A stretch of 64,000 bases of DNA from a virus (IMGVR_UViG_3300042554_001750); one strand, 5' to 3'; counted from the first letter of the stretch, positions 1 to 16,597 are shown. Numbers and translations: made by a program. Notes: generated by a model not told the origin, from the sequence alone.

Positions 1-582
1 GAAATTGATAATGAAGTCAAGAAAGGTGCCAAGAAAGGATACAAGGTAAGTATTCGTTGGCATGATGCTGGTGACTTCTTTAGTCCTGAGTATGTAGATA
101 TGGCATTTAATCTAGCAAAGAGTTTACCTAATGTAGACTTTTATGCTTACACAAAAGTTGCTGATGTTGCGTTAGGTGAGAAGCCCGACAACTTTATGAT
201 TAACTGGAGTGAAGGCGCAAGTGCTTCACAAGAGAAGAAGGTAAAGGGTAGTGATCCTAGTTTAGAAAAAACAAAGAACAGCAGAATTATTCCAAGCAAC
301 TTATTCTATGATTTATTAGTGAAGGACGAAAAGAAGAACTTGGTTAAGGGTCCTGAAGGCCAATGGCAAGTGATACCTGACAAGTTACCTGAACTAAAAC
401 AACGACTAGCAAAAGAATACGGACTAAGTCCAAATAGTATTCTTAGCTATAGTGAGTGGGAAAGTAAAGTCAAGGGTAAAGATAAATCACCATTGAAGTA
501 CAATGTGATTATTGCACCTGGCGAACCTGATTTAACTGCTAAGGATGCAGGAGTATTGAGTACATTGTTACTCAAGCATTAA
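1..582 (+). CDS. Gene product 88 (GP88)-like protein, 5'-truncated by window edge
   Basis: Frame 1 is open from base 1 (EIDNEVKKGAKKGYKVSIRWHDAGDFFSPEY...), upstream of the ORF-track Met at 100; the RWHDAGDF motif is typical of phage GP88-like proteins. Confidence 0.6.
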   Translation, partial: EIDNEVKKGAKKGYKVSIRWHDAGDFFSPEYVDMAFNLAKSLPNVDFYAYTKVADVALGEKPDNFMINWSEGASASQEKKVKGSDPSLEKTKNSRIIPSNLFYDLLVKDEKKNLVKGPEGQWQVIPDKLPELKQRLAKEYGLSPNSILSYSEWESKVKGKDKSPLKYNVIIAPGEPDLTAKDAGVLSTLLLKH

Positions 583-1402
583 TCTTAAGTAGTTCGTTGA
601 TAGTATACAAGTTACGCATATAGGGCGATACATCTTCTAATACACTTGAAGGTAAATCGCCCTTTCTTCTTGGGCCGTATTTTACTTCAAATTCATAGCC
701 ATTAATGTCTTGGAACATACAAGTCATTTCATAAACTGTTTTACCTACACCATGCCCTAATGATTCAACACTATTGCTAGGCTTATCAATTGCTGTTTTT
801 AATGCATCACAAATTTCCATGACATGGACATAATCACGCAGACATGTGCCATCTTTGGTATCATAATCATTGCCGAATATTGTGAACTCACCAGTCTTAA
901 CTGCTCTCATTAAATTGAGCATTAATCCGTCTGGATTTGTGGGAGGCACAACTGTGCTACCTATCACATTATAAAATCTAAAAATGCTATAATCTTTTTT
1001 GTTGTGTTGTGTGCAGTATTCACGGACTACATCTTCTGCGGCTCTTTTGCTAATACCATATGCACTAGCACAACCTTCGGCAGCGCCAGTACTGGCAAAA
1101 ATAAAATTCTTTGTTTTTATTTTATTCACAACATTCATTGTGCCGTTCAAATTAGTGATATAATATTGAATAGGCATCTTCTCACTTTCGCTTACATTAA
1201 CCTTTGCCGCTAAATGAATAACACAATCAAATTCTTCTTCTAAATTGAATTGACGGTTTATATCACAATGGTAAAAAGTATGCGGGTCAACTTGCGGATA
1301 GTTAATATCTAATCCATGAACCTCGTATTCATCTTTTAACAAATGTGTTAAATGTGATCCAATGTATCCTGAACTACCAGTGATTAAAACTTTCTTTACC
1401 AT
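572..1402 (-). CDS. galE: NAD-dependent epimerase/dehydratase (UDP-glucose 4-epimerase-like)
   Basis: TGSSGYIG Rossmann motif, HLAA, YxxSK (YGISK), FRFYNV, RDYVHV. Confidence 0.85.
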   Translation of the reverse strand: MVKKVLITGSSGYIGSHLTHLLKDEYEVHGLDINYPQVDPHTFYHCDINRQFNLEEEFDCVIHLAAKVNVSESEKMPIQYYITNLNGTMNVVNKIKTKNFIFASTGAAEGCASAYGISKRAAEDVVREYCTQHNKKDYSIFRFYNVIGSTVVPPTNPDGLMLNLMRAVKTGEFTIFGNDYDTKDGTCLRDYVHVMEICDALKTAIDKPSNSVESLGHGVGKTVYEMTCMFQDINGYEFEVKYGPRRKGDLPSSVLEDVSPYMRNLYTINELLKINA

Positions 1403-2724
1403 GCGAATAATTCCTCTTTATCTTCTGTGGGTATAAAATTAGGATCTTTTGTTAGATATGTATCTTCATCTGTATAGATTACACGAAACTTATGTTTATT
1501 CGTCAACACACTACGAATATCATCAATGCAAATTACTTTTCGTCCCAAACTTGCGATATAATCTTTTAGTTTTACAGTGGTCTCGTTGCAAATCTTTGCC
1601 GTATTATTATTAGATTGTTTTGTTTTAAAATCATTAAAACATTCATTCCATTTATGAAATACTGTATTTTCTATACTACCTGCATGACTCAAAACACCTT
1701 TATTATACCAATTTTCAGCAGTAGCAAACATATGATATGCATTTAATATATCTGTTGCCATATTCTTTTTATTTGTTTCAAAAAAGTAACGGCTGTCAAA
1801 GTTTTTTGTCCATCGTTGATCACTTAGGCAGAATGTGGGCAATTGTATGTGCTGTTCATAAAATGCCATACCATAGCTTTCAACTGTGCTAGGATTAAAT
1901 GCAACTCTTGCGCTTGTAATAAAATCTACTTTTTCTTTACCAACAATACTAGAATGAATGTCATACTTGACACCTAACTTAGATAAACGGTCCTCAAATT
2001 TTTTGACACCATTGGGGCTAGTCATTACTTTAGCAGGAAGTTTAGTCTGCTCAATCAAGTCAATAAACAATTCAGGATTTTTACCTTCTTCCCAGCGACC
2101 AACAAACAATACTCCCTCTCTAGGCGTGTGATGTTCTTCTAAAAGTCCACGCTCTGTGATAGGTATAGGAAGATGATATACTGTATCGCTGATGTTTAGT
2201 TGATTAAATTTGCTTTGTGTGCCAACATATATACCCGATGTTTCTAGCTGCTGTCGCATTAATTCATTTGTATTATGTAAAAATGGATTTTTAGTATCTT
2301 TGAAAATTTGACTTTCAAGATGTGTATAGGCAATAATCTGAATTACATCTTCAAGTCCCATTGTACTTGCAACCTGAACTGTCTCATATGTGTTACAAAT
2401 AAACGCATCATATAGATTATGCTCTAATGCTTCTATGATAGCATTTCTAAAGTTCGCCATTCTTTCATAGCAAAATGTATCACCATACATAAAGATATTG
2501 CTATGGTCTGTATAACGCAATGATTCTAGTGGTGCAATAACATTTGCTTTTAAAGATTTTACAAACTCGTTGTCTTGTGGCTCTTTGTCGGTGATAATAT
2601 CAACTTTGATATTACGACTATCCATTAACTCACAGAAGCTTTTAGCAAATTGTCCTATACCACCGTGAGGTATTAGTGTTTGATAACTAACTAAAAAACC
2701 AATTCTTTTATCGTATGTTCTCAT
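1396..2724 (-). CDS. GT-B glycosyltransferase (GT4-like)
   Basis: GGIG N-terminal motif, FVGRWEEGKNP, ESYGMAFYE (E-x7-E); start moved to 2724 because of the ATGA overlap with the upstream stop. Confidence 0.8.
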   Translation of the reverse strand: MRTYDKRIGFLVSYQTLIPHGGIGQFAKSFCELMDSRNIKVDIITDKEPQDNEFVKSLKANVIAPLESLRYTDHSNIFMYGDTFCYERMANFRNAIIEALEHNLYDAFICNTYETVQVASTMGLEDVIQIIAYTHLESQIFKDTKNPFLHNTNELMRQQLETSGIYVGTQSKFNQLNISDTVYHLPIPITERGLLEEHHTPREGVLFVGRWEEGKNPELFIDLIEQTKLPAKVMTSPNGVKKFEDRLSKLGVKYDIHSSIVGKEKVDFITSARVAFNPSTVESYGMAFYEQHIQLPTFCLSDQRWTKNFDSRYFFETNKKNMATDILNAYHMFATAENWYNKGVLSHAGSIENTVFHKWNECFNDFKTKQSNNNTAKICNETTVKLKDYIASLGRKVICIDDIRSVLTNKHKFRVIYTDEDTYLTKDPNFIPTEDKEELFAW

Positions 2725-2954
2725 TTCTTTAATTGCCAGATTAAAAATTCTTCTTTGCTGATCCAATATTTTTGTACGATCGGGTCACCGGGCCCGGTAA
2801 TCCAATTTTCGCCATAGTAGGCAATTTTACCCCAAAGTGGTTTTTCAGATAAAAAACATTTTTTTGGAATCCAACAGAGTTTTAATTTCCAACCTCTGGT
2901 TCTGTTTAATCCCCAATCTTCTGAAAGAGGCGCCTGCTGGGCATCTCCGTACAT
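2721..2954 (-). CDS. Hypothetical protein, 77 aa
   Basis: Fills the gap between queE and the GT gene, with an ATGA overlap. Confidence 0.65.
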   Translation of the reverse strand: MYGDAQQAPLSEDWGLNRTRGWKLKLCWIPKKCFLSEKPLWGKIAYYGENWITGPGDPIVQKYWISKEEFLIWQLKK

Positions 2955-2957
2955 TAA

Positions 2958-3809
2958 TCAGGTACCCCATTCATTCTTAAACAGTGGCACTTGAAGTCTA
3001 TCACTATAACGCCAACCGTTGTTCATAGCTTCAATAGCAACATTCTTAGCATTAAGAGTATACACTGGTTCTACCCCGCCACAAGGCATCAGGTAAACAG
3101 GACCTGTGAAGCCAGCTTTACGATATAAGTTTACTGCTTCTTTTGCTTCTTCTACATCTTCTTTAGTTGCTACCACAAACTTCAAATAAGTGAAACCATA
3201 TTCATCATATTGAGCAACAACATCAGGCTTTATAGCTTCATCCCATTTTTCACCTGAAATACTTAGTTTAGGACTAACACTAAATGTTACGCTAAAATAA
3301 CCTTTATCATGATGCCATTCACGATGCAACCATTGTCTAAATTCTTTAGTTAATTCTTGAGTGCCATTTGTCTCAAAGGTTAGTTCCTTCAATGGTCTCA
3401 TTTTTTCGTGCGAAAGTAATTCAGGATACGATCTTTGCCATCCAAGCAGAGGTTCACCCCCTGTGATAACCAAGTGCTCATCTTGCCAAGACCGTCCAGG
3501 AAGTAAATCAATAATACTACTAACAATAGTATCGGTATTGAGCACAGGACTAAGATGTTTGAAACGAGGGTCCCAAGATGCATAACTATCACATCCAGTG
3601 CTGACAAGCGGAAGGGATTTATAATCTGTATAAGTTTCTGCATTAATCGCAATTATATCTCTTTCTGTACTTAATTGACCTTTTGGCATGCCGAACCCGC
3701 CGCATGTAAAATTGCATCCAAAAGTTCTTAGGAAGACACTAGGTACACCCATGTATCTACCTTCTCCCTGTATTGAATAAAACAACTCTGATATTTTTAA
3801 ATGGCTCAT
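2958..3809 (-). CDS. queE: 7-carboxy-7-deazaguanine synthase (radical SAM)
   Basis: ELFYSIQGEG, FLRTFGCNFTC...CDS (extended radical SAM Cys motif), ITGGEP, FETNGT, VSPKL, RLQV; start 3809 overlaps the dadA stop (ATGA). Confidence 0.93.
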   Translation of the reverse strand: MSHLKISELFYSIQGEGRYMGVPSVFLRTFGCNFTCGGFGMPKGQLSTERDIIAINAETYTDYKSLPLVSTGCDSYASWDPRFKHLSPVLNTDTIVSSIIDLLPGRSWQDEHLVITGGEPLLGWQRSYPELLSHEKMRPLKELTFETNGTQELTKEFRQWLHREWHHDKGYFSVTFSVSPKLSISGEKWDEAIKPDVVAQYDEYGFTYLKFVVATKEDVEEAKEAVNLYRKAGFTGPVYLMPCGGVEPVYTLNAKNVAIEAMNNGWRYSDRLQVPLFKNEWGT

Positions 3810-4975
3810 ATTTGTTCCGAAATTAATTTTGCTGTGTATGGAGCTAATGTCCAACCTAGATGTCCGTGACCTGTATTATAAAATACATTTTTACATTTGT
3901 CACTTTTTTTGGTAATAGGCATCATATTCGGAGTCATTGGTCGCAAACATGCCCATTGTGTATAATCATGCGTGTTAATACGGGGAAAGTTTGTATGCAC
4001 CCATCGCAATAGTGGTTCAACTCTGTCCCTGCGAATATCATAGTTTTCACCTGTTAGTTCAGCAGTGCCAGCAACACGGAACCTATTACCTAAACTTGAA
4101 GTTACAATTTTGGCTTTATCATCAAGTAAACTAACTTTGGGCAATAAAGATGAATCTACATTATTGATAGTAATACTATAGCCCTTGACAGGATAGATCG
4201 GTAATTTATCACCCAAGCTTTCAGCTATGTCAACACTGCCTACTCCAGCACATATGACAACACAATCAGAATGATCCATTAGATACTCAATATCTGCTTC
4301 GTCGTTATAGTAAAACTTTACACGATATTTTTTCTCTAAGACTTTTGCTAACTGATAGCAAAATTTATGTATGTCACCTGTCCAATCGCTAGGAGTCCAA
4401 GCAGCACCAACCACACCTTTAATATCTTTTAAAGATGGATCTAGTGCTATTGTTTGTGCAGGTGTTAGTATATCCCACTCAACGTTGTTATTATTGTAAA
4501 GTTCTTTTGCAACTTTAGCAGAGTCAAAATACTTTTCATCTTTATAAAAGTGAAGTATGCCACAATCACTACGGTCAAACTCTAACTGTTCCTGGTTGCA
4601 AATTTCGTCATACAATTTTCTTGACTCTAAGCCCATGGCTATGGTTTTTTCAGTATTTGTTTTATACTGATTGGTCATAGTGTTGTAAAGAAATTTACTC
4701 ATCCAACTCCATTGCTTAAAGTCAAGCCGAGGACGAATAAGTAACGGGGCATCTTGGGTAAACATCCATTTAATGCCCTTCTTAACATTGCTCCATGTTG
4801 TCCATACTTCACTATTACTAACAGAGACTTGACCCCCATTAGCAAAACTAGTACGCATGGCAGGGTGAGGTTCCTGTTCAAATACAGAAACTTTATGTCC
4901 TGCTTTGGCTAAATAGTAAGCTGTCGTAATACCAGCGATACCTGCACCAATAACTGCTACATGTTTTTTATTCAT
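3806..4975 (-). CDS. dadA: D-amino acid dehydrogenase-like FAD oxidoreductase
   Basis: VIGAGIAG, TSFANGGQ, PVKGYSIT, WACLRPMTP, NTGHGHLGWT; start MNKKH at 4975. Confidence 0.88.
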   Translation of the reverse strand: MNKKHVAVIGAGIAGITTAYYLAKAGHKVSVFEQEPHPAMRTSFANGGQVSVSNSEVWTTWSNVKKGIKWMFTQDAPLLIRPRLDFKQWSWMSKFLYNTMTNQYKTNTEKTIAMGLESRKLYDEICNQEQLEFDRSDCGILHFYKDEKYFDSAKVAKELYNNNNVEWDILTPAQTIALDPSLKDIKGVVGAAWTPSDWTGDIHKFCYQLAKVLEKKYRVKFYYNDEADIEYLMDHSDCVVICAGVGSVDIAESLGDKLPIYPVKGYSITINNVDSSLLPKVSLLDDKAKIVTSSLGNRFRVAGTAELTGENYDIRRDRVEPLLRWVHTNFPRINTHDYTQWACLRPMTPNMMPITKKSDKCKNVFYNTGHGHLGWTLAPYTAKLISEQI

Positions 4976-5615
4976 GTTTATTCTCATAATTAAAAGAGTT
5001 ATTATCACCTAAAAACCATTTAGGATTGGTTTCAACAACATACTTTTTAGTACAAACCTTAAAATCAGGGAATAATAGTTCTTTAGGATTGCTAGCAGCA
5101 TCAAAAAATATACATCTATTATTTGGTTGTGCAGCGTACTGTCCATTATCTAGTTCAATAAAATTGAAACTTTTATGATCCTCAGGCCATTCAGCATAAC
5201 TAGTATCAATAATGTTCAAATCAGGAGCACTATGATCTACGGTAAAAAGATAATTGCCCTGATAGAAATTTTTATCTTTGGCATAAAATTTACAACTCAA
5301 ATTTCTTAGAAATGCCTTTTGCATGATTGTAAAATCATAACTAAAACAATCCCAAATTTGCAATGTATCAAGGCTTAAAAATTTGGCAGGATCTAAATCT
5401 TTATTTCTACTTACAAAAGCATGAAGTGGCAACTTATCGTATAGAGCACCATATCTTGGTAGATAAGCCTCTATACGAAAAGCCTGGCTGCGTAAACTTT
5501 TGATACTCACCCAAATACAAGGTTCATACTCATCATGACCTTTTGTAAAGTCATATAAGAATTCTCTGCGTACAAAACAATGTACTGGTGGTATGTTTGC
5601 GACTAAGTGTGCCAT
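4968..5615 (-). CDS. Hypothetical phage protein, 215 aa
   Basis: Long ORF abutting the queD stop and overlapping the dadA start. Confidence 0.8.
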   Translation of the reverse strand: MAHLVANIPPVHCFVRREFLYDFTKGHDEYEPCIWVSIKSLRSQAFRIEAYLPRYGALYDKLPLHAFVSRNKDLDPAKFLSLDTLQIWDCFSYDFTIMQKAFLRNLSCKFYAKDKNFYQGNYLFTVDHSAPDLNIIDTSYAEWPEDHKSFNFIELDNGQYAAQPNNRCIFFDAASNPKELLFPDFKVCTKKYVVETNPKWFLGDNNSFNYENKHE

Positions 5616-6116
5616 TTAATTGAATAAGTCCTCGTTCCATTCACGGTGACCTTCACGAAAGGCCATGTTTGCTTGTGTCTCTCTAACTTCTACACGGTAG
5701 CACCATAGGCGTTCGCTTTCTCCCGGTCCCCACATGTCAGGAATGTAGACACCATTAACATACTTGTAAAGCATGTCGGCTAGACCTTCACAGCCTAAGC
5801 GTGGAAGTATAGTTAGTTTAGCCATCTTTTTTTCTTGCAACATTTTAAATGTTTCAAGTTCTGGATCATCTTGCGCTACAAGCAATGTATGGTCAAACTG
5901 ATCTTCTAGAATTTTCTTAAGTTCTTTCAATCCACCGTAATCAGCAGCCCAATTGCGAACATCAAGATTATTAGTACCAAAATAAAATTTCATACTAAAA
6001 CTATATCCATGTATCATATTGCAATGACTGTCAGCACGCCATTGACGATACGCACAGGGAAATGCGTCATGGTATTCTTTAGTACTTGTATATTTGTATG
6101 TAATTGGATTATGCAT
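5616..6116 (-). CDS. queD: 6-carboxy-5,6,7,8-tetrahydropterin synthase
   Basis: CxxxHGYS motif (SHCNMIHGYSF), DYGGLK, FDHTLL, CEGLA, EVRET; SD AGGAG 5 nt upstream. Confidence 0.9.
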   Translation of the reverse strand: MHNPITYKYTSTKEYHDAFPCAYRQWRADSHCNMIHGYSFSMKFYFGTNNLDVRNWAADYGGLKELKKILEDQFDHTLLVAQDDPELETFKMLQEKKMAKLTILPRLGCEGLADMLYKYVNGVYIPDMWGPGESERLWCYRVEVRETQANMAFREGHREWNEDLFN

Positions 6117-6187
6117 ATTTTCTCCTATGTTAATTTTAGCATAGGCAGCGGAATTTTTAAAGCGGGACGATGCTGAGACCGCTATAC
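6117..6187 (-). promoter_or_regulatory. Candidate cis-regulatory RNA (pseudoknot versus anti-SD hairpin) in the queD leader
   Basis: AGCGG/CCGCU stem; loop AGCAU complementary to downstream AUGCU; competing CCUAUG/CAUAGG hairpin covering the SD. Confidence 0.5.
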
Positions 6188-6655
6188 TTATTTACCATTT
6201 TTATTTAGTTCTGTCTCAGCAACTCGTTTACGCAAACTACTTGAACTAAAACTATGATCACGACCGTTGAATACTAATTGTATTCCACGTTTCTCGCAAA
6301 TGGCACGACCAGTAAAATCTTTCTCCATGTACTCAACACCGAGTATACGCACATCAACGGGCAATGTCAAGAGGATATCTTCTAAGTCTTTTTCCGTATT
6401 GTAGACAACTATTTCATCTACAAAGCGGCAAGCACTTAATGTAATTTGGCGCTCTACAATACTTTGTATGGGAGCATTCTTTTCAGGACGATCCCAACTA
6501 GCATTGTTTTGTAATCCACAAATAAGATAGTCACAGTGATTTTTAGCCTCACTTAGCATTGCGACATGTCCGGCATGCAGTAAATCAAATTGGCTAAAAG
6601 TTATACCAATTCGTAAGCCTTGAGCTTTTAATTCTTTAATTCTGTTGAAGATCAT
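6188..6655 (-). CDS. Cytidylyltransferase (TagD/glycerol-3-phosphate cytidylyltransferase-like)
   Basis: FDLLHAGHV (HxGH), VDEI, RDHSFSSSSLR; start 6655 from ATGA overlap. Confidence 0.85.
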   Translation of the reverse strand: MIFNRIKELKAQGLRIGITFSQFDLLHAGHVAMLSEAKNHCDYLICGLQNNASWDRPEKNAPIQSIVERQITLSACRFVDEIVVYNTEKDLEDILLTLPVDVRILGVEYMEKDFTGRAICEKRGIQLVFNGRDHSFSSSSLRKRVAETELNKNGK

Positions 6656-6888
6656 TCTTGCAATCTTCTCCACATGATCTTTTGTTCATGTTCTTTTAAG
6701 AATTCATCCTCTCCTGCAAATTCGGGAGAATCTTTTAGTATTGAATCCACTAACCATTTAATTCTATAAAGGTCCTGTTTTAAGTAAAACGCAGTATAAC
6801 CATCGTTATATGAACTGTTAACTTCTACACCGGTCATATAGATTTGATGATGTACGCTAGTGTAGTCCATTGGTTTCTTAAAGCCCAT
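6652..6888 (-). CDS. Hypothetical protein, 78 aa
   Basis: Overlapping start/stop with both neighbours. Confidence 0.7.
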   Translation of the reverse strand: MGFKKPMDYTSVHHQIYMTGVEVNSSYNDGYTAFYLKQDLYRIKWLVDSILKDSPEFAGEDEFLKEHEQKIMWRRLQE

Positions 6889-7148
6889 TATACTAACTCC
6901 TCTAAGATTCCCAATAACTCAGCACCGATCAAAAAGAATCCTGCTACAAAAAATACACCACCTCCTTGAAGTAGTGCAACACCGGCGACAATTCTAAGAG
7001 CACTCTTTACAAGGCTAACATAAAAATGTCCTTTGCTGGGATCCTTGGGTTGTATATTAATCATAGGTGGATGATGAGGACAGCGTCCTTGTTGAAAATC
7101 ACAATCAGGGCTATAATCTTTTTTACAGATATCGCACTTCATCTGCAA
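6888..7148 (-). CDS. Small membrane protein with N-terminal CxxC/Cys cluster
   Basis: CDICKKDYSPDC...C followed by a hydrophobic C-terminal hairpin. Confidence 0.65.
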   Translation of the reverse strand: MQMKCDICKKDYSPDCDFQQGRCPHHPPMINIQPKDPSKGHFYVSLVKSALRIVAGVALLQGGGVFFVAGFFLIGAELLGILEELV

Positions 7149-7819
7149 CCCTTAGTTGCAATGTTTAAAAACTCTTGTCTAGCAGCAGGATCATTTTTGA
7201 AACCTCCACCGAGACGGCTAGTGACAGTTGAACTACCTGTATCCTCAACACCGCGACTCTTAACACAATAATGCTGTGCGTCAATCATAACCGCAACATC
7301 TTCTGTATCTAAGATAAACTGTAGTGTGTGGAAAATCTGTTCAGTTAACCGTTCTTGAATCTGCGGACGCTTGCTGAAATATTCTACAATCCGATTAATT
7401 TTAGATAGTCCAAGCACTTTATCCTTAGGCACATATGCAACAGTAGCGGTGCCATCAATGATAACAAAATGGTGCTCACAATTGCTTTGTACATTGACGT
7501 TCCTTTCAACGACCATTTCGTTGTACTTCATCTTGTTATCAACTGTAGTACACTTGGGGAATGCTTCATAATCAAGCCCCCAAAAGATTTCGTTTACATA
7601 CATCCGGGCAACACGTTTGGGTGTTTCTGCTAGACTGTCATCAGACAAATCTAATCCAAGCAATTCCATTATTTGCTTGAAATTAGTTTCAATGATTGAA
7701 ATCTTGGCTTTGCGATCAAGATCAACTTCCTTCATAGGAGTTTCAACACCCATTTTAACTAGATGTTCGTGAACTTTTAAACCAAGCTCAGGGTCTGTTT
7801 TTGTTTTATTGTAACTCAT
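7139..7819 (-). CDS. folE: GTP cyclohydrolase I
   Basis: TPKRVA, SNCEHH, GLSKINR, RPQIQERLT, HYCVKSRG. Confidence 0.95.
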   Translation of the reverse strand: MSYNKTKTDPELGLKVHEHLVKMGVETPMKEVDLDRKAKISIIETNFKQIMELLGLDLSDDSLAETPKRVARMYVNEIFWGLDYEAFPKCTTVDNKMKYNEMVVERNVNVQSNCEHHFVIIDGTATVAYVPKDKVLGLSKINRIVEYFSKRPQIQERLTEQIFHTLQFILDTEDVAVMIDAQHYCVKSRGVEDTGSSTVTSRLGGGFKNDPAARQEFLNIATKGCR

Positions 7820-7851
7820 AGAATCCTTCCTTACGCGGATATGAAATTGGA

Positions 7852-7879
7852 AAATGTGCTACCGTTGTGTAGCACATTT
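7852..7879 (-). terminator. 11-bp hairpin downstream of the Hc1-like gene
   Basis: AAATGTGCTAC-N6-GTAGCACATTT directly after the stop codon; U-tract weak. Confidence 0.55.
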
Positions 7880-7881
7880 AT

Positions 7882-8070
7882 TTATGCCTTAGCTTCTTTG
7901 CGGGCGTTTTTTGTTTCGGTAATTTCATTACGGCGAGCCTTGACAGCCTTCGCTAGTTCTGCCAATGCTTTACGGGCACGGGTGCCTGCAGCATTATTAC
8001 CTTTTTCAAACTTTTCATGTTCGGCTAAGTATGCTTCTAAGTGTGTATTAATATCATTGTGTGCGTTCAT
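7882..8070 (-). CDS. Histone H1-like (Hc1-type) small basic DNA-binding protein
   Basis: GNNAAGTRARKAL motif, basic C-terminus. Confidence 0.7.
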   Translation of the reverse strand: MNAHNDINTHLEAYLAEHEKFEKGNNAAGTRARKALAELAKAVKARRNEITETKNARKEAKA

Positions 8071-8333
8071 TTTGTTTCCTTTACTGTTTTCTTTTTTGTC
8101 TTTTTTACTGCTGTGACAGGAATAGTTGACTCATGTTTTAGTATAGCATTTCTAACTTCACTAAGCAATGCTTCATCATCCCATTCTAATTTAGTAGTAC
8201 CATCTTCGTATGTAGTTACTGTAAGATGTGTGCCCTTAACTACTTTGGGCCATGCTTCGCTATTTTTTGTTTTCTTTTCCTTTATAACACTGGCTGGTGT
8301 TGAATCAGCAGTGGTTTTCTTTTTTGTTGCCAT
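8067..8333 (-). CDS. Hypothetical Lys-rich protein
   Basis: SD present; overlaps the downstream start. Confidence 0.7.
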   Translation of the reverse strand: MATKKKTTADSTPASVIKEKKTKNSEAWPKVVKGTHLTVTTYEDGTTKLEWDDEALLSEVRNAILKHESTIPVTAVKKTKKKTVKETK

Positions 8334-8340
8334 TATCTCC

Positions 8341-9375
8341 TCACTTTAAAAATACATCATTAATCTGACGGTTAACACGGATGAATGTGGTGCACTTACT
8401 AAGTTGTTTAAGAGTTGGTGCTCCAACATATGTGCAAGTGCTACGCAAACCTCCGAGTAAATCTAGTACAGTATTTTTTACTGCACCGCGATATTTAACT
8501 TCAACTGTGCGACCCTCACTACTGCGATAATTAGCGACACCTCCGTGATGCTTGTCCATAGCAGTATCACTACTCATGCCATAAAACACTACACGAGGAT
8601 TCTTACCATCTTCACTAATTACTTCGCCTTCGCCTTCATCATGTCCAGATAACATGCCACCCAGCATTACAAAATCAGCGCCAGCTCCGAAGGCTTTAGC
8701 GACATCCCCAGGACAAGTACAACCGCCGTCAGCAATAATGTGTCCACCAAGACCATGAGCAGCGTCCGCGCATTCAATGATTGCTGAAAGTTGTGGATAG
8801 CCAACGCCAGTTTGAATACGAGTAGTACAAACACTCCCAGGGCCAATGCCCACTTTAACAATATCGGCTCCACGTAGAATTAACTCCTGTGTCATGTCAG
8901 CCGTTACTACATTGCCTGCTATGATAGTATGCTTGGGATACAATCTACGAACATCAGCTACAAAATCACCAAAATGTTCGCTATACCCATTTGCAATATC
9001 AATACAAATAAAATGTATTGCAGGATTATCTTCTAGTATGGCTACTAATCTATTTAAGTCTTTTTCGCTAGTTCCAGTGCTTACGGCAAAATAATTGCCA
9101 CCGATATTATCAGTTAATTTAGGAAATTCATCACGACCTAGTGACTTTACTAGACAAGTAAACATCCTATGTTCGTAAAGTGCTACAGCCATAGAAGGAG
9201 TTCCTACACCATCCATGTTAGCTGCCATGACAGGGACTCCAGTCCATTCCCACCCACTATGCTTAAACTGGTATGTGCGAGTTAAATCAACTTCTTTACG
9301 GCTTGCTAGAGTACTACGCTTAGGACGAATCAATACATCCTTGAAATCTAGCTTAATATCATCTTCAATACGCAT
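8341..9375 (-). CDS. guaC: GMP reductase
   Basis: [50 protein letters not shown]. Confidence 0.95.
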
Positions 9376-9430
9376 TAACAATTGCCTCTAATAAAAACTA
9401 ACTATACAACAAAACAACTATAAAACAAAA

Positions 9431-9455
9431 GAAAACGGGAATAAATCCCGTTTTC
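9431..9455 (-). terminator. Rho-independent terminator after dnaK
   Basis: GAAAACGGGA-N5-TCCCGTTTTC followed by a T-run on the minus strand. Confidence 0.75.
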
Positions 9456-9458
9456 CTT

Positions 9459-11336
9459 TTACTTGACTTCTGTAGTTTCTGCGTCTACTACATTTGGTTC
9501 CGTTTTTTGTTTAGCTTGTTCTGCTTCATACTTTTTACTAGTAATGGGACCAATTGCTTGATACAGTTCGGTAACCTTTTTATTGATTTCCTCAGCATCT
9601 TCACCCTTAAGTGCTTGCTCTAAATTGTCAAGTGCTTCCTTTGCTTTATTACTTTCTTCCTCTGTTACCTGATCTTTAAATTCATTGTAATCACTACGGA
9701 AGTTATTTAAAGCACCTTCACCACTGTTCTTTGCTTGAATCAGTTCAAGTTTCTTCTTATCAGCTTCTGCATTTTCTTCAGCTTCACGAACCATCTTATC
9801 AATTTCAGCTTCAGTTAATCCAGAATTAGACTTGATTGTAATCTTGTTTTCTTTACCTGTGCCTTGATCTTTTGCACTAACATGCATGATACCGTTAGCA
9901 TCAATATCAAGTGTTACTTCAATTTGAGGTACTCCACGCTTGGCTGGGGGAATTCCTTCAAGATTAAATTCACCTAACAATTTATTGTGTTGTACAAATT
10001 CTCTTTCACCTTGATAGACTTTGACAGTAACAGCAGGTTGATTATCATCCGCAGTACTAAACACTTGACTATGCTTGGTAGGAATAGTAGTGTTCTTTTT
10101 GATAAGCTTAGTCATGACACCACCCATAGTTTCAATACCGAGACTTAGAGGTGTAACATCAAGCAATAGAACATCCTTACGGTCACCTGCTAAAACACTA
10201 CCTTGAATAGCTGCACCAGCGGCAACTGCTTCATCAGGATTAACATCCTTGCGAGGTGCCTTAGCAAACAATTTTTCAACTTCTTCTTGAACCTTAGGCA
10301 TGCGAGTCATACCGCCAACAAGAATGACTTCATCAATGTCACTTGCTGTTACATTTGCATCCTTCATCGCAATCTTGCATGGTTCAATAGAACGCTTGAT
10401 TAATTCTTCAACCAAACTTTCTAACTTAGCACGGGTGAGCTTGATGTTCATGTGCTTGGGACCACTTGCATCAGCAGTAATGTATGGAAGATTAACATCA
10501 GTTTGGCTACTGCTGGACAATTCAATCTTGGCCTTTTCAGCAGCTTCTTTCAAACGCTGTAGTGCTAATACATCCTTAGTTAGATCAACACCTTGTTCCT
10601 TTTTAAATTCAGAAACAAGATAGTCCATGATGCGTTGGTCAAAGTCTTCACCACCTAAAAATGTATCACCGTTAGTGGACAGAACTTCAATCTGTTTCTC
10701 ACCATCAATGTTTGCAATCTCAATAATAGAAACGTCAAAGGTACCACCGCCCAAGTCATAGACAGCAACCTTACGGTCTTTCTTATCAGCTTTATCTACA
10801 CCATATGCCAGTGCAGCCGCTGTTGGTTCATTGATGATACGCAATACTTCTAGACCAGCAATGCGTCCGGCATCCTTAGTTGCTTGACGCTGGCTGTCGT
10901 TGAAATATGCAGGGACAGTAATAACTGCTTGAGTGACTTCGTGACCGAGATAATCTTCTGCGGTCTTTTTCATCTTGCGCAAAACTTCGGCTGAAATTTG
11001 CGGAGGTGCAATTTCTTTACCTGAAACACGGACCCATGCGTCACCATTAGTTGCCTCATAGATTTCATATGGCATGAGGTCAATATCTTTTTGAACTGCG
11101 TTTTCTTTAAACTTACGACCAATCAAACGCTTGGCTGCATAGATAGTATTTTTGGGATTTGTTACTGCTTGTCGTTTTGCACTTGCACCAACTAAGATTT
11201 CATCGTTAGTGTATGCAATGATTGATGGGGTTGTACGTGCGCCTTCACTGTTTTCAATAACTTTTGTAGAACCGTTTTCTACAACTGCAACGCACGAATT
11301 GGTTGTACCGAGGTCAATACCTATTACTTTGCTCAT
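9459..11336 (-). CDS. dnaK: Hsp70 chaperone DnaK
   Basis: [36 protein letters not shown]; full length. Confidence 0.98.
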
Positions 11337-11361
11337 ATTTTATCTCCTTTAAAAAAGCAAG

Positions 11362-11403
11362 AATATCGTAGGACCTGTAAGGCATCCTACGATATTATTT
11401 ATA
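11362..11403 (-). promoter_or_regulatory. Late promoter TATAAATA (11396-11403) abutting a 12-bp inverted repeat upstream of dnaK
   Basis: Exact T4 late box; AATATCGTAGGA-N11-TCCTACGATATT. Confidence 0.6.
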
Positions 11404-11414
11404 CCTAAAAATTA

Positions 11415-12590
11415 TTAGAACTTAGATTCTCTAGTGTGTTTACGATAATCCGTAGACATGCGCAAATATTTCTCACCCTTACCCTGAAGGACATCACAAA
11501 TTCTATCAATAGTACCGTCATTATAGTTACTAATTTTACCCATATTGACATGTGGTTTCTTTAGTAGAATTTCTAACTTGTTTATAGCATCTTCTATTGA
11601 CCATGGAACATAGAGGCGTTCATGATCATTAGCAAAAGTTTCTGGGAAACTGCGATAAGCAGGATACAATACATTACAACCAAGAGTATCGGCCTCAGAT
11701 ACTGTGTTTGATACCCAATCTTGTAAAGCACAATTAAACAAAACCCTACTATCATTAAGAATATTATAGTAAGTATTCTTATCTAGATCCTCATAAATTG
11801 ACAGTTTGTTTTCTTCTTCTAATTTACGGGTGCGTTTCATATAACTATCATTATTGCTACGCAACTTGCCGCCGCTACACAAAACAAATTCAACTTCGTT
11901 AGGATGCCTACGATTATATTCTTCAATTAGATCCATAAAGAAATCGGGCTGCTTTTCCTGATCCCAACGCGCGGCAAATACAACACGCATTCTGCGCTTG
12001 TTGAATGGTTTAATTTTACCTTCAACACGTTCTTCAACTTCTTCTTTACCGAATGCTAGCCCTGAAATATTGTATATAGGACTAGTCCATCCAGCAATAC
12101 GCATATGAGCAACCATTTCTTCGTTTGTTGCGAGGACTCCGTCCACAAACTCATTAACCATTTGTTCGTAGAGGCCCATCCATTTCGCCATACCCCATAC
12201 ATGTACGAAATCGTCAGGATCAATGGACTGAGCAAGACACCTAACATAAATGCGGGGACGTAGATTACTAGGGACTTGATCCAGTATGTAAGGTAAACTT
12301 TCCATACCGGGCTGGAACATGTCTTCAAAGTAGATAACATCTTCATTTGTTACTTTTCCCTCTTTCATCAATTTGACAAGGTTCATCATTTGACTCATGG
12401 AGTAGTAGCTACGACCATGAGCATCCAATACCTGACCAGTAACGATTGCCTGATCACTGGTTAGTGTTTCGCCGGATACAATTTCGTATTTGATTTTTCT
12501 TCGTTTGAAAACACGTTCATTCCAATCAGTTAACTGAAGGGTATAACGCGCTTTATAGGGCTCTAGCCCCATGTAAAATAGTTTTCTCAT
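11415..12590 (-). CDS. GT-B glycosyltransferase (putative DNA-modifying)
   Basis: FAARWDQEKQP, LQDWVSNTVSEA, YPAYRSFPE; lies next to the DpdL-like and DpdA-like genes. Confidence 0.7.
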   Translation of the reverse strand: MRKLFYMGLEPYKARYTLQLTDWNERVFKRRKIKYEIVSGETLTSDQAIVTGQVLDAHGRSYYSMSQMMNLVKLMKEGKVTNEDVIYFEDMFQPGMESLPYILDQVPSNLRPRIYVRCLAQSIDPDDFVHVWGMAKWMGLYEQMVNEFVDGVLATNEEMVAHMRIAGWTSPIYNISGLAFGKEEVEERVEGKIKPFNKRRMRVVFAARWDQEKQPDFFMDLIEEYNRRHPNEVEFVLCSGGKLRSNNDSYMKRTRKLEEENKLSIYEDLDKNTYYNILNDSRVLFNCALQDWVSNTVSEADTLGCNVLYPAYRSFPETFANDHERLYVPWSIEDAINKLEILLKKPHVNMGKISNYNDGTIDRICDVLQGKGEKYLRMSTDYRKHTRESKF

Positions 12591-12595
12591 ATTGA

Positions 12596-12841
12596 TTAGA
12601 AAAAGTTAATTTTTAACAATTTGCATACTGCATCATATGGATTTGATATCTCAACCCAAACATTAGATTTAATATCATATGTTTTGAATGCATCTACAGT
12701 AACATTCATTTTATCATTATTATATACTGTAGTCATATTGCATTTTCCCTCTAATACAAAATAATGTATATTAGAATCAGTAATGCTTCCTGTTATTGTT
12801 TCATTCTTATCTAGCTCAATTTGATTTATATTGTATGGCAT
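12596..12841 (-). CDS. Hypothetical protein, possibly cupin-like
   Basis: YFVLEG motif; preceded by TATAAATA (12878-12885) and a GCAA-tetraloop hairpin. Confidence 0.55.
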   Translation of the reverse strand: MPYNINQIELDKNETITGSITDSNIHYFVLEGKCNMTTVYNNDKMNVTVDAFKTYDIKSNVWVEISNPYDAVCKLLKINFF

Positions 12842-12854
12842 ATATTTTATGTAA

Positions 12855-12885
12855 AGAATGGCAGTTGCCTGCCATTCTATTTATA
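12855..12885 (-). promoter_or_regulatory. Late promoter TATAAATA overlapping a 10-bp GNRA hairpin
   Basis: AGAATGGCAG-GCAA-CTGCCATTCT; may also terminate the upstream gene. Confidence 0.55.
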
Positions 12886-12890
12886 TGCTT

Positions 12891-13106
12891 TTAAACCAAT
12901 TCAGCTTTTCCATCTATTTCCCAGTTGTCCTTGACAGGCTTTCCAGTAATAAATTTTGTATACTGACGGAATACATAACTCTTGTTACTGTATAGGTCAG
13001 ATTCGTCATATTTGTACCCAAACTGAACACAGAAATTAAGATACTTTTCTAGGTCCTCAAAAATCTGATTGACACGAGGATTGGGTTGAATAACGATTTT
13101 TGCCAT
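12891..13106 (-). CDS. Hypothetical protein, 71 aa
   Basis: SD AAGGAG upstream. Confidence 0.75.
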   Translation of the reverse strand: MAKIVIQPNPRVNQIFEDLEKYLNFCVQFGYKYDESDLYSNKSYVFRQYTKFITGKPVKDNWEIDGKAELV

Positions 13107-13117
13107 TTATATCTCCT

Positions 13118-13567
13118 TTAGATGGCTAGTTGTTGATAAGGTTGATGTGTTTTATAAGAAATTGTGGCACCGTTCTCACCGTCTTCGGATACGGTAATCT
13201 CAATGTCACGCCCGGGATAACGAGTAGCAATAACTTCATAAAGGTCATCGCTAATCATTTCACAACTCTTGAAATTCAATTCCAATGTGCCTTGGTAGAG
13301 CTTTTCTAGCCAACGCTTGAATTGGATAAACTCAATATCCCTATCGTTGTGAAATACTTGAATGCCTACGTTGAAATGAAAAATATGACGATGGGGAGTT
13401 CCCAAGAAACTTACATCATATTCATCACCAGTGGCAAGATTTGAGTCGGTTGCAGCAGCCGGGTACTTATGAATACCTTCTTTACGAAAGGTCACCCAGA
13501 TCATTCGGCGTGCTCGGTCGCGAATTCTTTCACGCTTTTCAGCCAATGCTTGTTCGTGTTGATTCAT
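13118..13567 (-). CDS. T-fold QueD paralogue (DpdL-like, predicted CDG decarboxylase)
   Basis: LGTPHRHIFHF metal-binding motif, DRDIEF, SCEM, VSEDGENGA; DpdL assignment is from recalled motif and needs an HMM check. Confidence 0.6.
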   Translation of the reverse strand: MNQHEQALAEKRERIRDRARRMIWVTFRKEGIHKYPAAATDSNLATGDEYDVSFLGTPHRHIFHFNVGIQVFHNDRDIEFIQFKRWLEKLYQGTLELNFKSCEMISDDLYEVIATRYPGRDIEITVSEDGENGATISYKTHQPYQQLAI

Positions 13568-13776
13568 TCATAACTCCGATTAAGTGTTGCCCACATCAAC
13601 CATTGATGGAAGGCGTTGTAAACTTTTTCTGCTTCTGTTGCATCTTGTTCAATTTTAATTCCGCGCACATAAAAGCCATCTTTTGCTACACGCAACATTT
13701 CAGACTCATTAGAGTGAAACAAGATTGTTGCAGGCTGAATGTCATGATCCAGATTAAAACTTGTAGTGTCGTCCAT
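13564..13776 (-). CDS. Hypothetical protein, 70 aa
   Basis: Coupled to neighbours. Confidence 0.65.
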   Translation of the reverse strand: MDDTTSFNLDHDIQPATILFHSNESEMLRVAKDGFYVRGIKIEQDATEAEKVYNAFHQWLMWATLNRSYE

Positions 13777-13940
13777 TATTCGTCACCGTAGCCTATACGC
13801 TGATTTTCTTCGTATTGGGCTTTGCGCAAAAGCCGTAATTCGTTTAAAACTTTATCAATTTTTTCTTTGTCTTTATTTTCGGCACTTTCCAAGTGCTTTA
13901 ATTGATTTTCTAAAATTCTAATTTGATTACTATAGTCCAT
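13776..13940 (-). CDS. Hypothetical protein, 54 aa (not in ORF track)
   Basis: MDYSNQIRILENQLKHLE...GYGDE; GGAG upstream; TAATG overlap with the next gene. Confidence 0.65.
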   Translation of the reverse strand: MDYSNQIRILENQLKHLESAENKDKEKIDKVLNELRLLRKAQYEENQRIGYGDE

Positions 13941-13941
13941 A

Positions 13942-15501
13942 CTATTCTCCTAACGCCTCTGTCATTGCATCATCACTATCAATGATTTCTTCATCAATTT
14001 CGGGTTCTGAATTTTCAAAACTAAACAGTTGATCAAACATAGTCATAGCGTTAACAGTCTTTTTACCACTAATACCCTGACTACCACTTTGCATTTGCGT
14101 CCATAGTTTGCTATGTCGCTCAATAACTTCTAAACTTTCAGCCTTTGTTTTCTTACTAAAGATTTCTTCAATCACATCTTTGTACAGTATACGATCAAAT
14201 GTTTCATTCATCAACATTTTTGGTATAACTCCCTGTTCATATCTACGGTTAGCTTCTTGAACACCATTGATATGCATCCAAACATTGTGACTTTGAACCA
14301 ATGTATAACTTAATGTATCCCAACTAGTTTTAGTTTCTTTACCGTGTTGACCCAAAAAGCCAACACCACGATAGCATAAATCTTTAAGTAAGAGTTTATC
14401 AGTTACTGGACTATCTGTAAATGTATCATGGATACCTTCAGCCAAAACAGCAGTGCTAAATTTGCGAGTATCATTAGCAAAGTTTTTATTTTCTGCGGTT
14501 TTTTCCATACTGTATGACCATTTTTTACCATGCTCAAAACTATTATTGAAATAAGCAAGGCCCTTAGCTGCACCATAAAATGGGCTAGCGCAGTCAAAAG
14601 TAATTTCCAAATTAGGATTGTGATATTTGCGTATTGCCTTTTTAATATCACTAAACAATACCGCATATTCCATGATACTAACACCTAGGCAATGAATTAA
14701 ATCATGTTTGCCCGGAATCAATAATCCATCATAGATAATATCAACTAATCTACGCAACATTAAATGTACATCAATTTTATTCTGACCACCGAATGCCCAA
14801 CCATTAAAATGATTGTCTGGATAGATATTTGGGTCACAATATTTTTTCATTTCAAGATACCAATCATCACTTTGAGTATGATTGCGACCTTGCAATACAT
14901 TTAAGAACTTACATTTGCCCGAACGGTTTTGAATAAAATATTCGTTGTTGATATGTGTAGCAGCAATCGCTTCTTCAATTGTGCTGATACCATGTGCTGA
15001 TTTACCAGTTTTGGGATCTTTGATATGAAAAGTAGTTAGTGACTGTGAAGGAATATCAAGACACATACCATAATCCATGTATGTATCCATCCATGTCAAA
15101 ACTTCCTTGCGCTTTTTCATGGCACGAGGACAGTTAGGATCCTTCCAATCAGCAGGCCACTGGCATTTTAGAATCTGAAATCCACCTGAGTCACCGAGCA
15201 TGAATGTGCCCGGTTCACGCTCACGGATAATGCTTTCATTTGGGTCATCTTTAGTGATATCTAAGTTAGCATGACCAGCACTGTACAATCCCCACTTATA
15301 ATAGTAAAGACCTTGTTGACTGTTTAAGAAATTCAAACATTCAACATCATTATTAAAACCAGCAGGAATCCTTGACTTCTCAAAATATTCCTCACCTTTG
15401 CGTTGCTTACCTAATCCACTGATGTAAAAACTACTAACAGCGGGCAAGAATAATGCCCACTCTGGATTGTGTTTACTAGAAAGATTATCTTGTTCCATCA
15501 T
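13942..15501 (-). CDS. dpdA: TGT-family guanine transglycosylase (DpdA-like, probably DpdA3-type)
   Basis: DSGGFQ, LDIP, VLQG, WAFGG, HCLG, FDCASP motifs; lacks the Zn-binding CxC motif of tRNA TGTs; in a folE/queD/queE context. Confidence 0.75.
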   Translation of the reverse strand: MMEQDNLSSKHNPEWALFLPAVSSFYISGLGKQRKGEEYFEKSRIPAGFNNDVECLNFLNSQQGLYYYKWGLYSAGHANLDITKDDPNESIIREREPGTFMLGDSGGFQILKCQWPADWKDPNCPRAMKKRKEVLTWMDTYMDYGMCLDIPSQSLTTFHIKDPKTGKSAHGISTIEEAIAATHINNEYFIQNRSGKCKFLNVLQGRNHTQSDDWYLEMKKYCDPNIYPDNHFNGWAFGGQNKIDVHLMLRRLVDIIYDGLLIPGKHDLIHCLGVSIMEYAVLFSDIKKAIRKYHNPNLEITFDCASPFYGAAKGLAYFNNSFEHGKKWSYSMEKTAENKNFANDTRKFSTAVLAEGIHDTFTDSPVTDKLLLKDLCYRGVGFLGQHGKETKTSWDTLSYTLVQSHNVWMHINGVQEANRRYEQGVIPKMLMNETFDRILYKDVIEEIFSKKTKAESLEVIERHSKLWTQMQSGSQGISGKKTVNAMTMFDQLFSFENSEPEIDEEIIDSDDAMTEALGE

Positions 15502-15869
15502 CCGATTTTAATTTCCATTGATGTAAGTTTCCTTACAATATCAATTTGTTCTTTTTTTTCTTTAATTTGTTTTTGAAGATCAGCAATGGTTGGGTTAGTT
15601 TTTGCTAACTCATTTAGTTCCATTTCTTCTTGGCGTTTTTGCCTTGCCCAATCAAGTAACGATTCAGCTTCGGGCGTCATTGAAACAGTAGAATATCCAG
15701 AAGCCATTTGAATCCAATTAGCTCCATCGTATATTTCAATATTTTGTGTTGAAGTATTAAACCGCATGTTACCAACACCTTGAGATCCACTGTAGTTATT
15801 CACATAAGTAGAGCCCGAGCCGCCGGTAACAGTCAGATATTTTCCACCGCCTGTAATGTTCTTAATCAT
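15498..15869 (-). CDS. Hypothetical protein, 123 aa
   Basis: Gly-rich N-terminus, coiled-coil C-terminus; overlaps both neighbours. Confidence 0.75.
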   Translation of the reverse strand: MIKNITGGGKYLTVTGGSGSTYVNNYSGSQGVGNMRFNTSTQNIEIYDGANWIQMASGYSTVSMTPEAESLLDWARQKRQEEMELNELAKTNPTIADLQKQIKEKKEQIDIVRKLTSMEIKIG

Positions 15870-16597
15870 TTTGCTTGCGCAGGAAGTAGATACTTGTATG
15901 TTGCAAGACCACTATCAACAGTAATCTCTGTAGCACCCTGATCACTAACCTTAACAGTCTTATCACCGGGCAAGTCCATAATAGATTGGAAGACCTTTAC
16001 AGGCCAGTTCCAAGCCTTACTTAGTGTACCAGTTACACCACTGTGAAACACAAAGTTACCACTGTGAGTTGAAGGATCACCGAAGTTAATCTTTAGATCA
16101 CCATTAAGTGTGGTCATAGTAAAGTGTTGTTCTTCACTGTTAGCACTTGCTTGTTTCTTCAAACGCAAGATACCTGCAATGCTAGGTTCAAATTCAACGT
16201 TCCAATTAGCACCCTTGAATACTGGAGTCTTGATTTTTTCTTCAACAATGGACTTGCTCATCAAACGGTAATCGTTTACGAAGTCATTGTTTTTAGTTTG
16301 AAAGTGAATGTTAGTGGGAACCATTGGATCATCTTTAGTTCCGCGTGTAACATTAACAGTGGCTTGTTCATCATACTCATCAAAACCAAGAATAGTTTTG
16401 AGCTTGCTAAGATTAGGCATACCAAATGTGCCGATAAAGTCACTAACTGGTTGCTTGAATGTACCCATTACGATAACACTCTTATCTTCTGCGATACTAA
16501 CAATTTGTGTTTCTTTGTCAGTACCCACAACCTTGACCAGCTCAATAACTCCTAGTCCATGTGTATGTTGAATCAAATCTTGTAAATAATCTTTCAT
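15866..16597 (-). CDS. Sliding clamp (gp45-like)
   Basis: Size, beta/alpha pattern, position next to polB. Confidence 0.65.
   Translation of the reverse strand: MKDYLQDLIQHTHGLGVIELVKVVGTDKETQIVSIAEDKSVIVMGTFKQPVSDFIGTFGMPNLSKLKTILGFDEYDEQATVNVTRGTKDDPMVPTNIHFQTKNNDFVNDYRLMSKSIVEEKIKTPVFKGANWNVEFEPSIAGILRLKKQASANSEEQHFTMTTLNGDLKINFGDPSTHSGNFVFHSGVTGTLSKAWNWPVKVFQSIMDLPGDKTVKVSDQGATEITVDSGLATYKYLLPAQAK

Follow-up and report, generated by a model that had tools for sequence, protein, structure and literature searches.

The window, by which we mean the whole 64,000-nt stretch of viral DNA analysed here (IMGVR_UViG_3300042554_001750), has lake water as its source, and at least half of its sampled words are found in each of 19 DNA runs from lakes or fresh water. 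Its minus strand carries a run of genes in the order folE, two small ORFs, a cytidylyltransferase-like gene, a gap of 71 nt between the upstream stop codon (6190-6188) and the next ATG, and a queD-like gene, downstream of which follow, in order, genes for a PHROG-3704 protein, a DAO-family flavoprotein, and a QueE-like radical-SAM protein. The genes that matter most for the gap are placed as follows, P1 being the first helix of the element that fills it:

7819..7139, minus strand: folE, upstream in the same gene run
6673..6188, minus strand: cytidylyltransferase-like ORF, with its TAA stop at 6190-6188, 4 nt before P1
5616..6116, minus strand: queD-like T-fold gene of 166 aa, with its ATG at 6116-6114; the gene that the leader would regulate

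The queD-like product matches Pfam PTPS (1.1e-15) and the QueD-like family PHROG 2389 (6.5e-37), and its best match in the PDB, 7v0f (CPH4 synthase), reaches an E value of 2e-4 only. It carries CxxxHGY in place of the QueD signature CxxxHGH, a tyrosine replacing the second zinc histidine, and the same holds for about 140 of the 141 motif-associated homologues (131 by a strict regular expression, plus NHGY variants). Such HGY-type QueD proteins may form a distinct T-fold subfamily, whose chemistry would bear on what an RNA in front of the gene might sense.

Farther along the minus strand, a 149-aa T-fold protein (13118-13567), whose sole PHROG match is to a family of unknown function, contains LGTPHRHIF, which fits the signature LxxxHRHxF proposed for the CDG decarboxylase DpdL (PMC10516641). 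No queC was seen among the ORFs scanned at 572-16597, and this, together with the DpdL-like signature, suggests that the pathway encoded in the window is a DNA modification of the 7-deazaguanine type. A 519-aa ORF at 13942..15501 (minus) has no Pfam or PHROG match at E<=0.01/0.001, and a strong bidirectional terminator-like hairpin (9427-9459; 14 pairs plus a T-run) lies directly 3' of a phage dnaK. In metagenome contigs from other lakes, agreement with the window stops precisely at the two edges of the queD leader, at positions 6118 and 6177, which suggests recombination breakpoints flanking an aptamer-queD module.

IMG/VR holds at least 589 QueD-like relatives of the gene, and we took the best 80 of these at least 589, at 89-95% identity. 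Nearly all of them carry upstream of queD the motif AGCGG-YCU..-GGCAUCA-UC-CCGCU-WUAYAAAYUC-UGCUGCC. Single-sequence folding of the leader is no better than chance (MFE z scores of -0.83 for 91 nt and -1.56 for 71 nt against dinucleotide shuffles), so that the support for a structure is comparative; the MFE fold of the window pairs UAGCGG with the second CCGCUG, a non-conserved pairing. Comparison among relatives gives instead an H-type pseudoknot, whose parts in the window, in the order in which they are transcribed, are:

6179..6183, minus strand: 5' strand of P1, AGCGG, pairing with 6165-6161; G6180 and G6179 invariant
6174..6178, minus strand: L1, UCUCA; YCU plus a spacer of variable length in relatives
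6168..6173, minus strand: 5' strand of P2, GCAUCG, pairing with CGCUGC at 6150-6145
6166..6167, minus strand: L2, UC, at the P1/P2 junction; C6166 invariant
6161..6165, minus strand: 3' strand of P1, CCGCU, pairing with 6183-6179; C6165 and C6164 invariant
6151..6160, minus strand: L3, UUAAAAAUUC, the A-rich third loop; consensus WUAYAAAYUC, always with UC at its end
6145..6150, minus strand: 3' strand of P2, CGCUGC, the putative switching strand; C6145 common to the SD hairpin described below

A preliminary description of this leader had paired AGCGG (6183-6179) with CCGCU (6165-6161), formed a pseudoknot between AGCAU (6174-6170) in the intervening loop and AUGCU (6142-6138), set against it a hairpin of CCUAUG (6145-6140) and CAUAGG (6129-6124) that overlaps the Shine-Dalgarno sequence AGGAG (6126-6122) ahead of the ATG at 6116, and allowed a second CCGCU (6151-6147) to capture AGCGG and destroy the pseudoknot. 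All of these minus-strand elements are present. P1 is real: 99.7% of its positions are paired in a set of 63 distinct sequences (A2) and 99.8% in a largely independent one of 91 (A5), with double-sided changes at three of its five pairs. The leader does form a conserved H-type pseudoknot, but the partner AUGCU was wrong: it is invariant in 63 of 67 window-type leaders, changes in the loop opposite go uncompensated, and the pairing holds at 60-70% for the variable positions, whereas the true P2, GCAUCG with CGCUGC, covaries. The trap by the second CCGCU belongs to the window lineage only, in which the basal P2 pair is G:C (6 of 63 sequences, and 5 of 145 in a second count); the fold is not conserved because other relatives read UCUGC at that place, with a basal A:U.

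Covariation in homologous leaders, the check that had been proposed for these folds, is found in both helices. Double-sided changes occur at eight of the nine P2 pairs counted in A2 (n=63) and at all seven variable pairs in A5 (n=91). The overall covariation score for P1 and P2 is 0.338 in A2 and 0.360 in A5, against 0.131 and 0.123 in shuffles, 0 of 500 of which reach the observed value, and against at most 0.095 in either set when the register is slid. The variants of P1 themselves record compensatory change:

AGCGG/CCGCU, 90 of 144 distinct aptamers
AGAGG/CCUCU, 16 of 144 distinct aptamers
UGCGG/CCGCA, 13 of 144 distinct aptamers
AGUGG/CCACU, 12 of 144 distinct aptamers
ACCGG/CCGGU, 10 of 144 distinct aptamers
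AUCGG/CCGAU, 3 of 144 distinct aptamers

P2 comprises 6-10 bp, made up of two basal pairs, a U•C mismatch, and a variable upper helix of 4-7 pairs with compensatory changes at every pair; the two basal pairs, CA/UG, are invariant but for 6 of 63 distinct sequences, where both strands change together to give CG/CG. In the window the pairs are G6173:C6145, C6172:G6146, A6171:U6147, C6169:G6149, and G6168:C6150, with U6170•C6148 as the conserved mismatch, and the next pair is broken (A6174 x C6144). Since the MAFFT and covariance-model alignments misplace about eight sequences with a 3-nt L2, we also parsed the structure directly in the 144 distinct aptamers, where P2 is 0.83 paired, compared with 0.54 when partners are swapped and 0.21-0.48 in shifted registers.

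The loops combine variable length with fixed bases. L1 spans 3-13 nt across the 144 aptamers, with C at its second position in 58 of 63 sequences; L2 takes the forms UC, UUC, CC, AC, or CUC, that is, 2-3 nt of which the last is an invariant C; and L3 is 10 nt long in nearly all aptamers, with A6158, A6154, U6152, and C6151 invariant, as is G6149 in basal P2. The equivalent of C6166 is C in 63 of 63 distinct sequences from protein-homology loci, and, being invariant and located at the P1/P2 junction, it is a candidate ligand-pairing base. The invariant bases thus gather where the two helices meet (the two uppermost G:C pairs of P1, C6166, the A, A, and UC of L3, and G6149), and the set was found by protein homology, hence free of RNA-pattern bias. 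The pseudoknot of the window is among the weaker versions, with its one broken P2 pair and an overlap of 1 nt with the SD hairpin. We consider it nearly certain that a conserved, gene-specific pseudoknot exists in the queD leader.

Its tie to one gene is close, as the preliminary description had placed it. A covariance model, R1, built from 60 distinct copies of the motif, has one match in the 64-kb window (6186..6138, minus; 58.3 bits, E 5.6e-14) and one match per locus in 78 of the 80 QueD-homology loci, always just 5' of queD; the two loci with no match are cut by contig ends. A protein-independent scan with a DNA pattern yielded at least 119 further viral loci. Among the matches listed, a QueD homologue of 25-90% identity lies directly downstream on the same strand in 113 of the 119, and queD is directly 3' of the motif in 102 of the 102 loci with enough downstream sequence. 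The exceptions among the 119 listed are two chance matches in coding sequence, one contig end, and three loci at which an extra ORF or a second T-fold gene stands between the motif and queD. At one of these three (L150:7161-7239, minus) the motif stands before a T-fold gene of the canonical HGH type, with the HGY queD next in line, and at the others (L151 and L188) it is separated from queD by an unrelated ORF of about 250-300 aa; the insertions at all three may be mobile genes. R1 finds one copy each in 98 of 100 pattern-found loci (928 kb scanned), the other two being chance matches to the pattern, and just one copy in a phage genome that is complete at 364 kb and bounded by direct terminal repeats (L072, G001). 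One copy per locus, before queD, makes the motif gene-specific and not a repeated promoter or terminator element, and the completeness of the motif-bearing 364-kb genome places jumbo phages in the clade.

In all, about 190 related phage contigs show conservation and covariation of the motif, which is known from one clade only, that of uncultured lake phages. Among cultured phages, ACP17, X1, and R5C have the most similar QueD proteins, but there queD directly adjoins the gene before it and R1 has no match, and a blastn search of the aptamer against 50,697 phage records returned chance matches only. A pattern scan of genome contigs gave, among the matches listed, nearly all chance matches and one true copy. 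This copy lies on a 5.9-kb contig binned into the uncultured Bacteroidetes MAG YR_bin-4742 (L303, L240), a second contig of which also fits the DNA pattern. We did not adopt a Bacteroidetes host assignment from this MAG, against which the strong AGGAG SD sites argue.

The surroundings of the motif vary. In 111 of 129 related loci, an upstream ORF on the same strand stops no more than 48 nt from P1; the distance is usually 4-20 nt (range, -1 to 48 nt), and these ORFs belong to varied genes with 108 different C-termini. Because the nearby upstream ORFs are co-directional and varied, we place the pseudoknot element inside polycistronic units, in which it travels with queD. The commonest gene order in related loci is FolE, with the pseudoknot farther on, directly followed by QueD and QueE, so that folE would lie outside the element's control.

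The region of the 3' strand of P2 also takes part in a second helix, which sequesters the SD in leaders of the window type and the start codon in a second type. In the window its features are:

6124..6145, minus strand: SD-sequestering hairpin, CCUAUG (6145-6140), a 10-nt loop, and CAUAGG (6129-6124); RNAalifold consensus
6122..6126, minus strand: Shine-Dalgarno sequence AGGAG, its first three bases inside the hairpin

In platform type A, the window type (71 distinct leaders), CCUAUG-N10-CAUAGG covers the AGG of the SD, and the first two C's of the hairpin are the last two P2 partners, with one C in common in the window. RNAalifold on 60 window-type leaders returns this hairpin as the consensus, with six almost invariant pairs, so the earlier proposal of it is borne out by conservation; the near-invariance means that covariation says little about it. 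Its variants are two closing pairs of CCUAUA type, one read as compensated to A:U and one gapped in the alignment. In type B (70 distinct leaders), the 3' strand of P2 pairs with the start-codon region, for example UGUCAUC with GAUGGCA or UGUCAUUG with CAAUGGCA, and some of these leaders pair with the SD instead (UGUCUUC with GGAGACA). RNAalifold predicts no consensus for type B platforms, and the AUG helix was therefore counted explicitly: it is 86.8% paired, against 27-67% for slid registers, and one of its pairs covaries (C:G in 35 sequences, U:A in 16).

A competing helix of 4-11 bp is found in every leader, to the SD in 64 and to the AUG in 77, with widely differing sequences; its mean best run is 6.58, against 5.94 with swapped partners, a control that is not far below. 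Folded without P2, 139 of 141 leaders have at least 2 nt of the P2 3' strand paired with the SD/AUG region at minimum free energy, and blocking of the P2 strands raises the modelled accessibility of the SD/AUG from 0.34 to 0.55. The predicted energies of the P2 duplex (-6.0±1.5 kcal/mol) and of the competing fold (-5.3±1.8 kcal/mol) are similar and balanced, and correlate weakly across leaders (rho 0.27, with the kinship of the sequences not corrected for). The two folds overlap by 1 nt in the window, by 2 nt in most window-type relatives, and by up to 7-8 nt in type B. Of the mutually exclusive folds proposed earlier, the opposition of a pseudoknot to a start-hiding helix thus stands, whereas the overlap in the window itself is a single nucleotide, and the evidence for mutual exclusion of aptamer and platform is stronger for type B than for the window type. 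Regulation of queD translation in cis by the pseudoknot, through the shared strand, is in our judgement probable.

The reading we favour, at a probability of roughly 0.55, is that the element is a small-molecule riboswitch. A compact H-type RNA pseudoknot would act in cis on translation of the queD-like gene, as a riboswitch-like translational device within a polycistronic mRNA, with folE before it and queD-queE after it. In the pseudoknot the 3' strand of P2 would pair with the P1 loop, and otherwise with the SD (type A) or the AUG (type B). Binding of what is most likely a small molecule to the conserved P1/P2 junction would stabilise the pseudoknot, release the SD or AUG, and turn translation ON. 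Candidate ligands, which have in common a 2-amino-4-oxopyrimidine face, would include 7-deazaguanine, CDG, preQ0/preQ1, guanine, and the pterins H2NTP and CPH4. The leader has what riboswitches generally show, namely a conserved aptamer supported by covariation, a position in the same-strand 5' leader of genes of one pathway, and a platform fold exclusive with the aptamer, this last weaker for the window type. Since the 3' strand of P2 otherwise pairs with the SD or AUG, the modelled architecture points to a pseudoknot that frees the start site, a polarity that the preliminary description had left open; given a riboswitch, we think an ON switch reasonably likely. An ON switch on a biosynthetic gene is unusual, and this counts against the reading.

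The same structural evidence would serve a protein-binding translational operator, in which a phage or host protein on the pseudoknot or on the alternative fold sets queD translation. Candidates would be a pathway enzyme (a TGT/DpdA-like or T-fold protein) or a regulator of the RegA or gp32 type. Translational operators of the T4 gene 32 type are established in phages, and the T4 gene 32 leader offers a parallel as a phage H-type pseudoknot upstream of a ribosome-binding site that controls translation downstream; it differs in being the autoregulatory nucleation site of a single-strand-binding protein, whereas the queD element would regulate a metabolic enzyme of the T-fold kind and is in direct competition with an SD/AUG helix. 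Confinement of the element to one phage clade fits a lineage-specific protein partner. The conserved bases, however, form a small junction pocket, not an extended surface of single strand; the motif accompanies queD beside very different neighbours, with no co-varying protein gene identified; and the link to a metabolic gene is typical of riboswitches. We regard an operator as unlikely, though, with the device considered next, as a main rival of the riboswitch.

Still less probable is a ligand-independent folding device, in which a co-transcriptional pseudoknot keeps the start open or protects the mRNA, or, in a variant, reports upstream translation when a terminating ribosome unwinds P1. A type B P2 of up to 10 bp may be stable with no ligand, and the upstream stop is often only 4-20 nt from P1. 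Yet a conserved and energetically balanced competing helix would be purposeless in a constitutive element, the spread of stop-to-P1 distances is inconsistent with a fixed coupling geometry, and the invariant unpaired bases of the junction would be left unexplained.

A divergent but true member of preQ1-I, binding preQ1 or preQ0 and repressing queD, is improbable to a further degree. PreQ1-I binds preQ1 or preQ0 by a Watson-Crick pair with its L2 cytosine, and C6166 stands in the equivalent position, by analogy a candidate ligand contact. The two share an H-type pseudoknot, a 5-bp P1 with G:C pairs at its top, UCCC before the 3' strand of P1 with a C directly 5' of that strand, an A-rich L3, a size of about 45-50 nt, and a place before a gene of the queuosine/7-deazaguanine pathway (queD). 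RF00522 (preQ1-I) aligns to the window at 14.6 bits (E 0.66; model positions 6-34 of 45), far under its threshold of 39. This is the only relevant Rfam match in the window at E<=10, and relatives do not reproduce it: RF00522 has no match at E<=10 in the typical relatives L020 and L006 or in ten whole related loci. At the gathering threshold no Rfam family matches anywhere in the window, in keeping with the earlier impression, for which an Rfam search had been the suggested check, that the leader fits none of preQ1-I, -II, and -III.

The structures differ as well. PreQ1-I has a 5-bp P1, a 2-nt L1, and a 4-bp P2 (PMC10639078), whereas the phage element has an L1 of 3-13 nt, a P2 of 6-10 bp with a U•C mismatch, an L3 of 10 nt ending in YUC, and an SD that lies outside P2 and outside the aptamer. 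The preQ1-I pseudoknot sequesters the SD or favours a terminator and so is an OFF switch, as are the known preQ1 riboswitches (PMC10639078). In the phage element, by contrast, the SD or AUG pairs with the 3' strand of P2 in the alternative fold, so that its platform has the opposite polarity and the pseudoknot should free the start site (ON); the element is, moreover, found only in phages. In preQ1-III (RF02680), which has the same pathway context as the phage element, the aptamer pseudoknot is, as in the phage element, separate from a downstream RBS hairpin; preQ1-III is about twice as long, has a pseudoknot of HLout type, and is an OFF switch, and the phage element has no Rfam match to it. 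Guanidine-III (mini-ykkC class III) is a small H-type pseudoknot and a translational ON switch, like the phage element as modelled here, from which it differs in its unrelated sequence, its conserved core, and its gene context (guanidine exporters), again with no Rfam match.

The leader also contains a promoter-like arrangement in the window:

6133..6161, minus strand: sigma-70-like geometry, TTTAAA (6161-6156), 17 nt, TG (6141-6140), and TAAAAT (6138-6133); 9/12 matches, TG present

An equivalent arrangement of a -35-like hexamer, a 17-18 nt spacer, and TAnnnT occurs in 67 of 71 type A leaders, with TG in 65. The -35-like hexamer, TTTACA or TATACA, is supplied by L3, and the loop of the SD hairpin supplies a conserved extended -10 (TGnTAnnnT: TG, one base, and TAnnnT), which varies at positions 3-5 only; this promoter-like -10 could explain the conservation of the SD hairpin at the DNA level. 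An internal promoter may thus coexist with the RNA element in type A, the region being dual-coded, and if active its transcripts, with a start predicted near 6126-6124 in the window, would be devoid of the aptamer. Promoter-like sites in the region are no commoner than in shuffles. One metatranscriptome run gave a single contig, at 5445-5624, with the leader outside its span. A near-consensus TTGACA-17-TATACT (11/12) lies at 6342-6370 (minus), inside the cytidylyltransferase-like ORF and about 160 nt upstream of the pseudoknot.

That the leader holds DNA-level signals only, a terminator hairpin and an internal promoter with no functional RNA structure, is very improbable in spite of this geometry. 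Neither promoter nor terminator explains compensatory changes in two interleaved helices, and type B keeps the pseudoknot with the promoter geometry in only 8 of its 70 leaders. P1, with 5 bp, a loop of 13-22 nt, and no U-tract (WUAYAAA follows), does not resemble a terminator, and a terminator scan makes no call. A new small self-cleaving ribozyme is scarcely credible either: pseudoknotted ribozymes are common in phage DNA, and the element is compact, pseudoknotted, and phage-borne with conserved junction nucleotides, but it has a strict association with one gene, one copy per genome, a platform tied to the SD/AUG, and no match to an Rfam ribozyme family.

With the riboswitch reading preferred, comparison of sequences makes the leader element a strong riboswitch candidate, new and phage-borne, on a pathway of DNA modification. 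More tentative, and put by us at somewhat less than even odds, is the full proposal of a new riboswitch class of large freshwater phages that senses a 7-deazapurine or pterin intermediate and turns translation of the queD-like gene ON. A paper on the 7-deazaguanine pathway in phages (NAR 2023, PMC10516641) mentions no riboswitch, and a non-exhaustive search of the literature found no published description of this motif.

If the element is a riboswitch, phages would carry their own metabolite sensors for the 7-deazaguanine pathway, whose DNA modifications shield phage DNA from restriction enzymes. On the full proposal, if true, the element would be the first case of a riboswitch devoted to a DNA-hypermodification pathway of phages and an activator to set beside the repressing preQ1 classes. 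It would bring an ON-type pseudoknot aptamer into a chemical family whose known switches are all OFF. An aptamer of about 50 nt with abundant natural variation would be useful for structural and synthetic-biology work, and the use of one aptamer with two platforms, the SD together with a promoter in one and the AUG in the other, offers a natural experiment on the evolution of expression platforms.
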